Origin: Thermodesulfobacteriota bacterium
GTDB lineage: Bacteria > Desulfobacterota_D > UBA1144 > Nemesobacterales > Mycalebacteriaceae
Direction: 5' to 3'
NCBI GenBank assembly: GCA_965198945.1
Contig: CBDAQI010000010.1
Span: 73,720-137,719 of the forward strand
DNA length: 64,000 nucleotides
Below, piece after piece: positions 33,001-45,000 of this stretch. Made by a program: the position numbers. Position 1 is the first letter of the stretch; the number at the start of each line of letters is the position of its first letter.

Positions 33001-36000
33001 TTCCGTGCCGACAAATTCAAAATCAACCTCTTCGGATATGGCGGCCAATATGTCGCGGGTCTCAAGCTCAAAATCCGGCGTTGTGAAAACTCTGATGACC
33101 GGGTCTTCGGGGTTTTCCGTCCTGACCCAGATGATATGGGAATATCCTCCGGCGATTGAGTTGAAAACAACATTATCGCTTTTGTTTTTCAGTTTCAGTG
33201 TAAAAACGCTCAAAAAATTTTCCGTTTTTTTCAGTATGTGGGCATAAGAATGTTGCCTTGCGCAAACAGCACGCATTATACTAACCGAAGAGGACAGATG
33301 AAAACCGCGCCCGTTTCTCAAACAGACGAGACTCCGCACAGTCCCGTAATGGTTGAGGAGGCGGTTTTTCATATCGCTCCCCGCCCCGGCGGAGTCTATG
33401 TTGACGCCACGCTCGGAATGGGCGGGCATGCGAGTGCAATAGTCTCTTCCGCGGGGGAAGGCGCCCGGCTGATAGGGATTGACGCGGACGGTGATTCGGC
33501 GCGTGTCGCGGAGCGGCGTCTAGGGCATCTCGGCGACCGTGTTTCGGTCTTTAACACAAACTTTACCGGGATAAAGGATGCGGTCAGTGCTTGCGGAGAG
33601 AGCGGAGTGGACGGCATAATTGCCGACCTCGGCATATCAAGCCGCCAGATAGCGCGAAGCGGAAGGGGGTTCAGTTTCAACGCGGACGAGCCTCTTGATA
33701 TGAGAATGGACACGGATCTTGAGATTACGGCCTCGGATATTGTGAACACAATGAGCACACGGGAAATAGCCACAATTATAAAAAAATACGGCGAAGACAG
33801 GTTCGCCCGCAGGATAGCCTCGGAGATTGTAAAAAGCAGGGAAAAAGAACCGATTTCAACTTCGCTGCAGCTTGCCCGCATAGTTTCCGGCGCGGTTCCG
33901 GCAAAGTTTCACCGGCCGTCACTTCATCCGGCGACAAAAACTTTTCAGGCTCTCAGAATCAAAGTGAACGGCGAAATTGATAATCTTGAGATTTTTCTGC
34001 ACAAAGCCGTTCCTCTTCTGAATAAGGGGGCGAGAATTGTGGTGATATGTTTTCATTCGCTTGAAGACCGGGTCGTGAAAAGGTTTTTTAATTTTATGAG
34101 CGCGGGTTGCGTTTGCCCCCCGGATCTTCCGCAGTGCGGGTGCGGAAAGGAAAAAACCCTTAAAGTGATTACGCGCAGACCCGTTCTGCCGTCTCCCTCG
34201 GAGATTTCAAGAAACCCGCGCGCCCGGAGTTCAAAAATGAGGGTCGGGGAAAGGGTTTAGAGGCGCGGCTGTGGAGCGGCAAAAAGCGAAAACAAGACGG
34301 CGGGGGCTTCTGTTTGACAGGATTTCCTTTTTTTTCAAGGCCCTTTTAGCCTGTGTCGCATTTGTCGCCGCTCTTGCCGGTTACATGCGTTTCAGGGTTG
34401 AGAAAGTGGCTCTTGCATATGAAATTTCGGAAAACGTGCGTGCGGAAAACCTTCTTATTGATGAAGTCGCGGCGGCGGAGCTGCGCTACAACAGGGTTTT
34501 TTCAAGCAGAAAACTCAGCGAAGCCGCAAAACAAAGAGGATTCAGAGAGCCGCGTCACTCTGATTTTATTTACGAGTCGGAACCGGGCGGTGTCGGGGGA
34601 TTAAAATGAGGCCGCCGGTCAGGTTCAGAAACAAAAAGGCTTTTTCACCCCCAAGGCTTTTTTTCTGCGTGGGACTTTTCTGCATTTTTTTTCTGGCAAT
34701 CGCCTACAGGGCTCTTGACCTTCAGTTTCTCAATACCGAAAAGGCTTTCAACCACGCAAAAAAACAGCAGGTCGGATATATGACCTTAAAGTCAAAAAGA
34801 GGCGGAATTTTTGACTCCGCCGGTTCCCTGATAGCGTCAAGCACACAGTCGCATTCCGCATATCTGATACCGAAAGACATAGAAGATCCCGAAAGTTTTT
34901 CGGATGCCGTTGCCGAGATTTCAGGGCTTGATTACGAATTTATTCTTTCCCGCGCTCTCAAAAAGAACAGGTCTTTTGTGTGGCTGCAAAGAAAAATTTC
35001 CCCGGAGGTCTTTGAAAAACTGCAAAGAGCAAGTCTGAAAGGCCTGGCCTTTATAGATGAGCAGAAAAGAGTTTATCCGCAGGGCTATCTGTTCGGTCCC
35101 GTGGTGGGTTTTACAGACACGGATTTGAAGGGAATTGAGGGTCTTGAGTATGCGCTTGACAATTACCTGACCGGAAAGGACATGAGAATAAGAGTGAAAA
35201 GAGACGGCAGGGGAGGCTCAATGATTTTCCACACGCCGAATTTTCTTGAGCAGACCAGCGGCGCGAATGTTTATCTGACGATTGATTCAAATATTCAGTA
35301 TGTGGTTGAGGAGGAGCTTGCAAAGGGCGTTGAAAAAACCGGCGCCGAAGGCGGCAGTGCGGTGCTTATGGACCCTCAGACCGGACGCATACTTGCGATG
35401 GCGTCTTATCCGTTTTTTGACCCCAACAGTTTCTCCGACTATTCGCAGATTCTGAAAAGAAACCTTTCGGTCTGGCAGGCTTTTGAGCCGGGCTCAATAA
35501 TGAAGCCGTTTCTCGCGGCTGCGGCGATTGAAGAAGGAGTTGTGGAAGAGAACACGGTTTTTGACTGTGAAAACGGCAAGCGCAAAATCGGAAGTGTGGA
35601 AATCCATGACACTTCACCCCACGGCGAGCTTACGGTTGTTGATACCATTGTTTTTTCAAGCAACATCTGTTCTTCAAAAATAGCCGAACTGCTCGGCGCC
35701 GGTGTTTATCACAAATATTTGAAAAATTTCGGCTTCGGTTCAAGAAGCGGAACCATGCTTCCCGGAGAGCACAGGGGAATAATTCCGTCTCCGAAACGGT
35801 GGGGCAGGGTCGGGCTGGCCACAATATCTTTCGGACAGGGCCTTACCGTGAACGCGCTCCAAATGGCGGTCGCGGCCTCTGTCATAGCAAACGGGGGATA
35901 CCTGATGGTTCCCCATATAGTTGACAGCGTGGTTGATGTGTCCGGAAACCGGATTGTGAAAAAAACTCCGAAGGTTAAGAGAAAAGTGATTTCCTACGAT

Positions 36001-42000: not shown

Positions 42001-45000
42001 CGGTTTTTCAAACTTCATGCGGCCTACCTGATTCTCGGTCTTGCCGTTATGGCGGTGATTGCGATGACGGATTACAGGCGACTCAAAAAAATCGCCATAC
42101 CCGCTTATTTTATGGGTCTGGTTTTTCTTATTGCGGTTCTGTTTGAAAGTGTGGGCAGAGAGGTTTTCGGAGCACGAAGATGGATATCGCTCGGCGGCTT
42201 TAATTTTCAGCCCTCGGAGTTTGCCAAGTTTATATTCTTCCTTTATATGGCGGACGCTCTGTCGCGCAAAAGCGGCATGATGTCAAATTTCACCAGAGGA
42301 GTTATCCCTCCTCTGCTGCTCGGCGGCGTTTACGCCACTTTGATACTTGCGGAGCCGGACTTCGGAACGGCGTTCATAATCCTCACCGTTATGGGAGTTA
42401 TGCTTTTTCTCGGCGGCGCAAGAATACTCCATATGCTTGGTCTTGTCGGCGGCGTGTTGTGCTTCGTGGTTTTTTCGGTCTGGATTGAGCCTTACAGAAA
42501 AACAAGGCTTCTGTCTTTTCTTGACCCCTGGGCAAACTACTTTGATTCCGGTTATCAGGCGGTTCAGTCAATGATGGCGTTCAGCCTCGGCGGACTGTTC
42601 GGACAGGGGCTCGGAGCAAGCAATCAGAAACTGTTTTTTCTTCCCCAGGCGCATACGGATTTTATTCTCTCCATAATAGGTGAGGAGCTCGGGTTTGCAG
42701 GCGTCATGCTTATTATCGCCGCTTTTGTGGTGTTTCTGTTCAGAAGCGTGAAAATCGCCGTTACCGCTCCCGACGGTTTCGGGTCCAACCTTGTTATGAG
42801 CTACGCGCTTCTGATAGTTTTTCAGGCGGTGCTGAACATGGGGGTGGCCATGTCTCTTCTTCCCACAAAGGGGCTGACTCTGCCGTTTGTCAGTTACGGG
42901 GGCACTTCCCTTCTTGTGAGTCTCGGCGCGGTCGGCGTCATACTTTCCGTGTCAAGGGCGCGGTCCCACCCGAAATGAAAGTCCTCATCTCAGGCGGCGG
43001 CACGGGCGGCCATGTTTTTCCCTCTCTGGCAATTGCCGATGAAATCAAGAAAAGAGATTGTTCAAATGAAGTTCTTTTTATAGGAACTCTAAAGGGTCTT
43101 GAGAGCCGCATAGTGCCTTCCCGGGGTTACCGTTTTGAGGCGGTCGGCGGCGCCCCGGTTTCCGGCGGCGGTGTCACAAAAGCGGTTTCAGGAGCATTTT
43201 CCACACTTTCCGGCGTCGTCAAATCGTTTTTTATTCTGAAAAAATTCCGTCCGGATGTGGCGGTGGGCATGGGAGGGTATGCGTCTTTTCCGGCGATTGC
43301 GGCCGCACGCGCTCTGGGAGTTCCGGTCGCCATTTGCGAACAGAACAGCGTTTCAGGTCTTGCAAACAGGGTTCTCGGCAGAATTGCGCGCAGAGTTTTT
43401 CTGTCTTTTTCGCCCCCGCGGGGGCTTTCCGCCGCGCCTTTCGCCCCCGGTAAAGTCCGGGTTGTCGGCAACCCCGTCCGTCCGGCAATGGTTGCGGCCG
43501 CGCGCGCCCGCAAGCCGGGGTGTTTTCCGCAGTCCGCAGTCCGCACGATTTTTGTTCTGGGAGGAAGCCTGGGAGCCCGCGCCCTGAACCGTTTTATTCC
43601 CGACGGGATTGCGGAATTCAAAAGACAAACAGGGCGAGATGTCCGTGTTATACACCAGACGGGTTCGCACGGAGCCCGTGAGGTCGCCGCCGCTTATAAA
43701 TCAGCGGGTGTGGGAGCTCAGGTGTTTGATTTCAACCCTGAAATAGCTGACTTGTATGCCGTTTCGGATTTGGTAATATCAAGGGCCGGAGCCGGGGCGG
43801 TTGCGGAAATTGCGCTTTTTTCCAGACCGTCAATTCTTGTTCCCTATCCGTTTGCCGCAGACGGGCATCAGAGCGCAAATGCCGCGATGATGGGGGAGGC
43901 CGGAGCCGCGGCCGTTATTGAGGAGAAAAATTTATCTCAAAAAACGGTTGCCGAAACTCTGGAAAGGTTGCTTAACTGGGATACGCTCAGAACAATGTCG
44001 CGCGCGGCGGCGAAAATCGCCGCCGCGAATGCGGCGGCGAGGATAGTGGACGAGATGGAAATTATCGCCTCTGAAAGTAAGTAGCCATGCACGGTAAATT
44101 CAAAAAGATACATATGGTTGGAATTGCGGGTTCCGGAATGAGGGGTCTTGCCGAGGTTCTTATCAGCATGGGATACGAAGTTTCCGGCTCCGATGAGGGC
44201 GGAGCTTCTTCGGGCCTTGCCTCGCTTGAGAGCGCGGGAGCAAAAGTCAGCGGGCGGCACAGGGAGGAAAATGTCGGCGCCTCGGACGTTGTTGTTGTTT
44301 CCTCGGCAATACCCGAATCAAATCCCGAACTTGTCGCGGCAAAGGCTCTGGGTATCCCCGTCGCCAGGAGGGCGGAAATGCTTGCCGAGCTTATGAGAAT
44401 GAAGTTCGGGGTCTCGGTAATGGGCAGCCACGGAAAGACCATGACAACATCCATGATAGCTTCCGTTCTCACCGCGGGCGGTCTTGATCCCACGGTTGTG
44501 GTCGGCGGCAGGGTAGCCGCTCTGGGAAGCAGCGGCTGGCACGGCGGCGGTGACATAATGGTTGCCGAGGCGGACGAAAGCGACGGTTCGTTCAGCATGC
44601 TTTCTCCGGCAATTTCTGTTCTCACCAATGTTGATTGTGAGCACCTGGACTACTACGGCACGGTGGAAAACCTGCGTGAAAGGTTTATGGAATTTATTGA
44701 AAGAACGCCTTTCTACGGACTCTCAGTGCTGTGTCTTGACTGTCCTCATATCCGGATGATGGCAAAGCGGGTTTCCAAAAGAGCCGTAACTTACGGTGAA
44801 AATCCCGATGCGGACTTCCGGATGAAAAATTTTCAAACACGGGGTTTCGGCGCGGAGTTTGATGTTTTTTCGGGCAAAAAGAAACTCGGCCGCGCCGCGC
44901 TTGCGGTTCCGGGAAGGCATAACGCGGTCAACTCTCTGGCGGCGGTCGCCGTCGGTATGGAGATGGGGATGAGTTTTGATTCCGTGAGACTCGGCCTCTG

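Follow-up and report, generated by a model that had tools for sequence, protein, structure and literature searches.

How does a bacterium build its wall when the only peptidoglycan polymerase recognized in its genome is the one that serves division? The question is raised by a stretch of 64,000 nt (the window) from contig CBDAQI010000010.1, to which all coordinates below refer. It comes from a genus with small genomes, called Mycalebacterium in an earlier note, which we take to be sponge-associated, and that note had proposed that a single FtsW–FtsI pair makes the entire wall. Six genomes of the genus were compared (three single-contig, 94–98% complete), among them the source genome, G000, which is 95% complete in 14 contigs.

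The division and cell wall cluster

The dcw genes of the window are arranged in the order mraW-ftsL-ftsI-murE-murF-mraY-murD-ftsW-murG-murC-murB-ftsQ-ftsA-ftsZ, with murJ divergent:

31436..32992, minus strand: murJ, lipid II flippase (PF03023, E 5e-117); in the same position in 5/5 genus relatives
33238..34260, plus strand: mraW/rsmH (PF01795)
34271..34609, plus strand: probable ftsL, assigned by position; no Pfam or NCBIfam match
34606..36522, plus strand: ftsI/PBP3 (PF03717, PBP_dimer; PF00905, Transpeptidase; PASTA)
36519..38010, plus strand: murE; in the G000 assembly one erroneous base in the A run 37215–37223 splits it into two ORFs
38007..39395, plus strand: murF (Mur ligase domains; assigned by position)
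39416..40531, plus strand: mraY (PF00953, PF10555)
40539..41897, plus strand: murD (MurD-like_N and Mur ligase domains)
41860..42978, plus strand: ftsW (PF01098; TIGR02614 above cut-off)
42975..44084, plus strand: murG (PF03033, PF04101)
44087..45457, plus strand: murC (Mur ligase domains; assigned by position)
45454..46338, plus strand: murB (PF02873, PF01565)
46326..47054, plus strand: ftsQ (PF03799, POTRA); the frame is open from 46326, but which codon starts it is uncertain
47051..48280, plus strand: ftsA (PF14450, PF02491)
48311..49522, plus strand: ftsZ (PF00091, PF12327)

At the corresponding position, G024, G027 and G028 (54–68%) and G019 (31%) carry homologues of the probable ftsL. 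FtsW scores 392.5 bits against TIGR02614 (cut-off 337.5); its longest ORF begins at 41656, but translation probably begins with the TTG at 41860, which follows a purine-rich stretch. Both synthase partners retain their catalytic motifs: the SxxK, SSN and KTG motifs of FtsI are all intact in G000, and so is the HTDF motif of FtsW. Twelve genes of the cluster have dN/dS ratios of 0.10–0.21 (the unrelated neighbour cbiB, 0.16), values that are rough because dS, at 1.0–1.6, is close to saturation. The cluster is under purifying selection.

Outside the cluster, murA and ddl are present in 4/4 genus genomes tested, and alr, murI, dapF, glmU, glmS and uppS in G000. Motif scans overlooked the true MurA and DapF, and so were not counted as evidence of absence. 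The earlier statement that the genus keeps the lipid II pathway, MurJ and FtsZ/A/Q/W/I is thus borne out, and the genus does not belong with peptidoglycan-negative bacteria. Wall-opening enzymes are retained, too. Slt and an M23 endopeptidase occur in 4/4 genus genomes, the latter with HxGxD/HLH intact, and G000 encodes a lysozyme-fold SLT_4 lipoprotein; G025 and G028 give weak SLT matches of similar size, and G019 gives none.

Could the pathway nonetheless be decaying towards a wall-less state, or be retained only so that lipid II can serve as a cue for division? The murE frame of G000 is divided by an extra A, and in G026 both ftsI and murF are split. The murE gene is intact, however, in 5/5 genus relatives, and a public contig over the same stretch, possibly from the source sample, has one base fewer at 37215; the frameshift is an assembly error. 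A murE pseudogene or programmed slippage, which we considered, is unneeded given that contig. The same assemblies also split genes that have nothing to do with the pathway, ygfZ and cox1 among them, and the cluster is intact in all three single-contig genomes, save that ftsL of G025 was not picked up. With low dN/dS and intact active sites as well, decay of either kind is very unlikely.

Losses and deletion sites

The genus-wide absences listed in the earlier note were re-examined, and almost all hold. PF00912, the mark of class A PBPs, is found in 0/6 genus genomes versus 93/95 others of the order, and MreC in 0/6 versus 91/95. MreB, scored at E<=1e-20, occurs in 0/6 versus 6/6 relatives from the class; the weak matches in the genus are DnaK-sized ORFs and FtsA ORFs. 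Each of the six genomes has one SEDS gene—the two matches in G024 are halves of one gene at contig ends—whereas 26/26 relatives have two, and each has exactly one PF00905 transpeptidase; RodA and PBP2 are absent. The AmiA-type amidase is likewise gone (Amidase_3 0/6, versus 11/11 comparison genomes). YkuD is the partial exception: it is absent (0/6), as claimed, but this is not peculiar to the genus, only 6/11 same-order genomes carrying it. S11 carboxypeptidases were found in 0/6 genus genomes and S13 in 0/4, which leaves FtsI as the one PBP detected in the genome.

Envelope functions beyond synthesis have gone as well. OmpA/Pal domains occur in 0/6 genus genomes versus 12/12 of the same order. 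Searches of G000 found no cpoB, dacB or L,D-transpeptidase and, with E. coli queries, no homologues of tolB, mltG, lpxA, lpxB or lpxD. One close metagenomic relative has bamA-skp-fabZ without lpx genes.

Gaps in assembly or binning might account for such a list, G000 being incomplete and fragmented, and single genes do go missing elsewhere in the order (PF00912 in G034, MreC in G045). In the genus, however, one and the same set of unlinked loci is missing from six genomes, three of them single-contig, and the genes to either side meet within contigs. The end of ygfZ and sco are 48 bases apart in G026, where G037 and G030 have the five-gene Rod operon; 75 bases separate a phnP-like gene and polX in G000, where G019 has amiA. 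The class A PBP is absent from both sites at which relatives carry one, and among the tblastn matches listed none was significant for a class A PBP or Rod pseudogene remnant at the deletion sites of G000. From synteny, the mreBCD-pbp2-rodA operon and amiA have been cleanly deleted. The joined flanks refute the gap explanation, to which we give almost no credence, and the absences are real.

A polymerase of an unfamiliar kind is a different matter. Our polymerase searches were based on PF00912 and PF01098, known families both, and a divergent enzyme beyond them would escape. An unrecognized or repurposed enzyme specific to the genus could then build a peripheral wall, and FtsW–FtsI would not act alone; the lysozyme-fold SLT_4 lipoprotein of G000 would be one candidate. 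By eye, though, that protein has motifs resembling those of lytic transglycosylases. New glycan must also be cross-linked, and FtsI is the sole transpeptidase found, YkuD being absent. Nor was a compensating extra gene seen within the dcw cluster among the genus genomes compared. We regard a hidden polymerase as improbable. On the strength of the deletion scars, the intact active sites and the low dN/dS, the FtsW–FtsI pair stands as the only recognizable polymerase; that it is also unique, as the earlier note implied, is not supported, for reasons given next.

Precedents, and the extent of the wall

The same gene set is found in Francisella. In the accessible part of Table S1 of Atwal et al. 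2021 (PMC8406291), 40 Francisella/Allofrancisella rows have ftsW and ftsI only, and the literature we found on this design in Francisella or in the genus comes down to that paper and one review, by Bachert and Bozue 2023 (PMC9877522). Our own survey of 41 Francisellaceae genomes agrees: PF00912 occurs in 0/41, one SEDS gene in 38/41 (none in 3), and exactly one transpeptidase match in 22/41, with further PF00905 matches in 19/41. MreB was found in 0/19, Amidase_3 in 0/8 and YkuD in 1/8, and the full pattern in 15/19 genomes tested for all four markers. Francisella and the genus have in common a single SEDS protein (FtsW), FtsI as sole high-mass PBP, and no PF00912, RodA/PBP2, MreB or AmiA-type amidase; both retain Slt, and YkuD is usually absent in Francisella. 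They differ in what surrounds this core. Francisellaceae have S11 carboxypeptidases (8/8) and OmpA/Pal domains (8/8), and the genus has neither; DacB, LdcA, VanY and MltA are listed for Francisella in the portion of the review available to us (PMC9877522). Low-mass PBPs of the DacD and DacB kind and Pal/OmpA tethers, which belong to the Francisella type, were not found in the genus. The PASTA domain of FtsI also sets the genus apart. The two lineages are unrelated, and hence their designs arose separately: that of the genus is convergent with, and an independent, leaner variant of, the Francisellaceae one.

Other known systems match less well. Chlamydia uses MreB, alongside RodA, and has no FtsZ; the genus has FtsZ and FtsA, without MreB or RodA. 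Neisseria, Staphylococcus and Rod-blocked E. coli resemble the genus in growing at the division plane without MreB. Neisseria and Staphylococcus, the classical cocci, retain a class A PBP, which the genus does not have. Rod-blocked E. coli also still has its class A PBPs, only PBP2 being blocked, according to the accessible text of PMC11589767, and so differs from the genus in the same way. Peptidoglycan-intermediate (PGi) bacteria (Anaplasma, Orientia, Wolbachia, Chlamydia, Tropheryma) share with the genus the lipid II pathway, a SEDS/class B PBP pair, and the absence of class A PBPs; by the gene criteria of Atwal 2021 the genus fits among them, having most lipid II genes, SEDS and class B PBP in 6/6, and no class A PBP. 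PGi bacteria are further characterized by a peptidoglycan-like structure of low abundance and by life inside cells or as endosymbionts. In the rows of Table S1 available to us (PMC8406291), however, PGi bacteria mostly retain RodA and/or PBP2, unlike the genus, several Wolbachia rows having RodA–PBP2 only, its mirror image. Six Buchnera rows of the same table have ftsW and ftsI only. These strains resemble the genus in having FtsW–FtsI and neither a class A PBP nor Rod genes, but in Buchnera loss or decay of lipid II genes is common, whereas those of the genus are intact and conserved.

Does the genus have a sacculus at all? Perhaps FtsW–FtsI makes only a transient septal ring that drives division, as in pathogenic Chlamydia but organized by FtsZ rather than MreB, in a cell living in an osmotically protected niche. 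The missing OmpA/Pal domains, together with the missing cpoB, dacB, L,D-transpeptidase, tolB, mltG and lpx genes of G000, accord with this. So do reports, in the parts of the papers accessible to us, that some Chlamydiales synthesize peptidoglycan at the septum only (PMC8406291), and that E. coli with its Rod transpeptidase blocked divides as oval cells (PMC11589767), albeit with class A PBPs unblocked. Against it, the synthases of Francisella are the same, and its mutants in carboxypeptidase and lytic transglycosylase genes are misshapen, as described in the accessible part of PMC9877522; this implies a wall that gives the cell its shape. Family f9, from the other order of the class, has OmpA in 0/4 and yet the whole Rod operon, and so Pal loss need not mean loss of the side wall. 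We hold the ring possible, but unlikely. Were it correct, no natural peptidoglycan system with an intact lipid II pathway would be leaner than that of the genus—a single PBP and a single SEDS polymerase, with no carboxypeptidase or amidase, no Pal/Tol tether and no lipid A—and it would take the form of an FtsZ-guided counterpart of the MreB-guided chlamydial ring; this, too, we rate a distinctly minority view. The loss of Pal, and of lipid A genes in G000, is as compatible with a ring-only or vestigial wall as with a full sacculus. An inherited thin sacculus is, in our judgement, a little more likely than not.

Family f9 also confirms the earlier remark that the other order has no class A PBP and yet keeps MreC. 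The class thus comprises three states: the full set; Rod without class A PBP (f9); and FtsW–FtsI only. As to a common origin of the class A PBP loss, three MurD+FtsW+MurG trees kept the genus family, f1, apart from f9, but an AU test does not reject their joining (p 0.218; 23 rows, with 7 close relatives left out).

A wall probably laid at the division plane

What seems likely to us is that the ancestor of the genus dropped its side-wall machinery, and that FtsW–FtsI, guided by FtsZ, now lays all peptidoglycan at the division plane. The ancestor would have deleted the mreBCD-pbp2-rodA operon, the class A PBP and the accessory genes amiA, pal-cpoB and dacB, while the lipid II pathway and divisome stayed functional. 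By analogy with established divisome biochemistry, the Mur enzymes, MraY and MurG would make meso-DAP pentapeptide lipid II, and MurJ would flip it; FtsZ, FtsA, FtsQ and FtsL would position and activate FtsW, the glycan polymerase, and FtsI, the 4-3 cross-linker, at mid-cell; and the M23 endopeptidase, together with lytic transglycosylases of the Slt70-like and SLT_4 kinds, would take over from an amidase the splitting and loosening of the septum. The cells would be coccoid or pleomorphic, and the wall thin, probably rich in pentapeptides, and without a Pal tie to the outer membrane. We infer the coccus shape and the full wall; that such a set can build a wall has a precedent in the Francisellaceae.

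The genus would be a second, independent lineage in which the divisome synthase is the sole wall polymerase. It lives without class A PBPs, on which both E. coli and the classical cocci depend, and has fewer remodelling enzymes than Francisella. Being known solely from assembled genomes, it makes a hard testing ground, and the core design is less surprising for already existing in cultured Francisellaceae. It touches, all the same, on how small a natural wall-building set can be, and on whether synthesis at the septum is enough to make a wall and keep it in repair.

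The dcw cluster and its integrity

The genome under study, G000, comprises 1.39 Mb in 14 contigs and is 95% complete, and the window corresponds to C10:73720-137719; the genus is the one that an earlier note calls Mycalebacterium, a name that NCBI places in Candidatus Dadabacteria. Its wall and division genes form a standard dcw cluster, arranged in the window as follows:

31436-32992: murJ, divergent from the dcw cluster
33238-49522: dcw cluster (mraW, probable ftsL, ftsI, murE, murF, mraY, murD, ftsW, murG, murC, murB, ftsQ, ftsA, ftsZ)

This gene order is shared with the five other genus genomes and with two relatives of the order. 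The SEDS gene scores above the cut-off of the FtsW model and below that of RodA. MurA and Ddl are present in all four genus genomes tested, and G000 also carries Alr, MurI, DapF, GlmU, GlmS and UppS. A Panacea/SocA-type antitoxin gene (PF13274; window 30485-31012) adjoins murJ.

In the four genus genomes aligned, FtsI keeps SxxK, SSN and KTG, and FtsW keeps HTDF, which we take to be the functional motifs. Among G000 and three congeners, G025, G027 and G028, Nei-Gojobori dN/dS falls within 0.10-0.21 across 12 genes of the cluster, and cbiB, an unrelated neighbour, gives 0.16; dS is near saturation. By its sequence, the remaining wall machinery looks functional. The murE gene is split at a run of A (window 37215-37223), but it is whole in all five genus relatives, and the run is one base shorter in a public contig that covers this region, from one study and possibly of the source sample; the split is therefore an assembly error, and other split genes in G000 need to be viewed with caution. 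Apparently split are murE, ygfZ, ksgA, polA and ligA (window 37215-37223; C12:20805-21796; C2:12394-13207 and 15082-17740; C13:90258-91646), and in the assembly of G026, another congener, ftsI, murF and cox1 (C3, L046; C9, L059). Elsewhere in G000, C12 about 99900-101800 matches at 70% a 1063-aa protein of G019, a relative outside the genus, that is Cas9-like by eye, and C13:52850-55486 encodes two secreted proteins with repeats judged by eye to be ankyrin-like.

Absent genes and the sites they left

The earlier note held that the genus makes do with one transpeptidase and one SEDS gene, and lacks PF00912, MreC, MreB, Amidase_3 and YkuD. All of this stands, although the last item says little. 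PF00912 occurs in 0/6 genus genomes versus 93/95 others of the order, MreC in 0/6 versus 91/95, and MreB, at E<=1e-20, in 0/6 versus 6/6 class relatives; genus matches to a relative's MreB were DnaK-sized and FtsA reading frames only. Among 32 chosen genomes, each genus member has one SEDS gene (two matches in G024 are halves of one gene at contig ends) and 26/26 others have two. A single transpeptidase match occurs in every genus genome, whereas 8/8 genomes of f9, a family of the class's other order, have two, and 17/18 same-order genomes combine FtsI and PBP2 with one or more class A PBPs; the remaining same-order genome, G034, has two transpeptidase matches. Amidase_3 is found in 0/6 versus 11/11 comparison genomes. 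Amidase_2 occurs in 0/4 genus genomes but is also missing from the single relative tested, and the absence of YkuD (0/6) is a weak marker because only 6/11 same-order genomes carry it. Three of the six genus genomes are single contigs, 94-98% complete. Outside the genus, a class A PBP match is missing from G034 (97% complete, 40 contigs) and an MreC match from G045 (single contig, 91%), by a gap or a separate loss.

Synteny shows that the genus absences are deletions rather than missing data. (Flanking genes are named here by labels assigned from sequence likeness.) In three relatives, G037, G089 and G030, an mreB-mreC-mreD-pbp2-rodA operon lies between ygfZ and sco/cox; in G026 only 48 bases separate the end of ygfZ from sco, and gyrB comes next after ygfZ in G000, G025, G027 and G028. 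G026 branches first within the genus in all three trees, a position that fits deletion of the Rod operon, then rearrangement. Of nine relatives examined, seven carry the class A PBP gene opposite cysK-ftsH; G019 has it between tps and maeB, and G020 at another place. None is present in the tps-maeB interval of G000, G026, G027 or G028, nor at the cysK site of G000. In G019 amiA sits between a phnP-like gene and polX, flanks that are 75 bases apart in G000. The relatives' pal-cpoB block (before hemL), dacB and L,D-transpeptidase have no tblastn match in G000. In G019 itself (L035, G019:C1:900000-916000), some 6 kb of inserted genes, one resembling a transposase, part mreC from mreD-pbp2-rodA. 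Large open reading frames with no assigned function occur near the examined sites in G025 (L052:9261-15335, 2024 aa) and G028 (L058:9591-13337, 1248 aa).

The genus forms a single, fully supported clade; the families among which it sits carry the complete gene set, and in three trees it stands apart from f9. An AU test (no outgroup; seven close rows left out) nevertheless did not reject joining the two (p 0.218), so that class A PBPs may have been lost either once or twice. Either way, only this genus has lost the Rod operon. The f9 genomes (L040, for example) are about 1 Mb and lack PF00912 (0/19), Amidase_3, YkuD and OmpA/Pal while keeping mreBCD-pbp2-rodA, just as had been claimed of the other order with regard to class A PBPs and MreC. 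If f9 is the free-living marine clade, it offers a case of free-living bacteria that have no class A PBP.

Hydrolases, envelope and a proposed mode of growth

A Slt70-like protein and one M23 peptidase, its zinc motifs intact, are kept in 4/4 genus genomes. G000 also has an SLT_4 (PF19489) lipoprotein (C3:2363-2992, L092), possibly a septum-splitting enzyme; weak SLT matches of similar size occur in G025 and G028, and none in G019 or G027. S13 is found in 0/4 genus genomes and is present in G019, and S11 in none of 22 class genomes tested, which leaves FtsI as the only PBP detected in the genus. OmpA/Pal-type domains occur in 0/6 genus genomes, 12/12 of the same order and 0/4 of f9. Searches of G000 with E. 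coli queries, distant ones applied to one genome, matched BamA but not LpxA, LpxB, a true LpxD, TolB, MltG, MltA, RlpA, AmpH, FtsX, MinC or MinE. The run bamA-skp-fabZ (C13:177775-181107, L118; also L126) has no intervening lpx genes, lpxD and lpxA included; together with the lack of LpxA and LpxB matches, this suggests that G000 has an outer membrane without lipid A.

The gene inventory is observed; from the established divisome model we infer how such cells might grow. Lipid II would be made and flipped, FtsZ, FtsA, FtsQ and FtsL would place FtsW-FtsI, and this pair, probably the only polymerase of the genus, would polymerise and cross-link glycan at mid-cell. Splitting of the septum would then fall to lytic transglycosylases and the M23 endopeptidase, with no amidase. 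The division plane would be the sole source of new surface, and so the cells should be coccoid or pleomorphic. With FtsW-FtsI alone, we lean somewhat toward a thin, inherited sacculus; wall confined to a ring at the division plane seems rather unlikely.

Precedent in the Francisellaceae

By its gene content the genus fits the definition of PG-intermediate bacteria given by Atwal et al. 2021 (PMC8406291). Table S1 of that paper has ftsW and ftsI only in 39 Francisella rows, one Allofrancisella, six Buchnera and three Sphaerochaeta, but it is KEGG-based and noisy: Deinococcus strains are scored as lacking class A PBPs, whereas PF00912 matched in D. radiodurans, one of our controls. We therefore tested the Francisella family directly, in 41 genomes of unstated completeness gathered through a Francisella endosymbiont record (L070). 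PF00912 is found in 0/41, genomes of up to 3.4 Mb included; one SEDS gene is present in 38/41 and none in 3/41, never a second; exactly one transpeptidase matches in 22/41, with extra PF00905 matches in 19/41; and MreB is found in 0/19, Amidase_3 in 0/8 and YkuD in 1/8. A 2023 review (PMC9877522) gives FtsI, DacD and DacB1 as the only PBP homologues of F. tularensis, with no known amidase. E. coli with PBP2 blocked divides by septal synthesis, but there class A PBPs are unblocked (PMC11589767).

In the literature searched, which covered few subscription papers and included PMC9116674 and bioRxiv 10.1101/2020.06.22.165886, neither the genus name nor a statement in words of the FtsW-FtsI-only design was found; the only printed traces found of the Francisellaceae pattern were table rows and a count of PBPs, and the accessible part of PMC12516126 mentions neither Francisella nor Dadabacteria. 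The earlier note was right that FtsW-FtsI is the sole polymerase set detected in the genus, but its headline design already exists, with cultured precedent, in Francisella. The genus differs in lineage and in being stripped further, as Francisellaceae have S11 (8/8) and OmpA domains (8/8) and the genus has neither. It is an independent, leaner example of a design already known.
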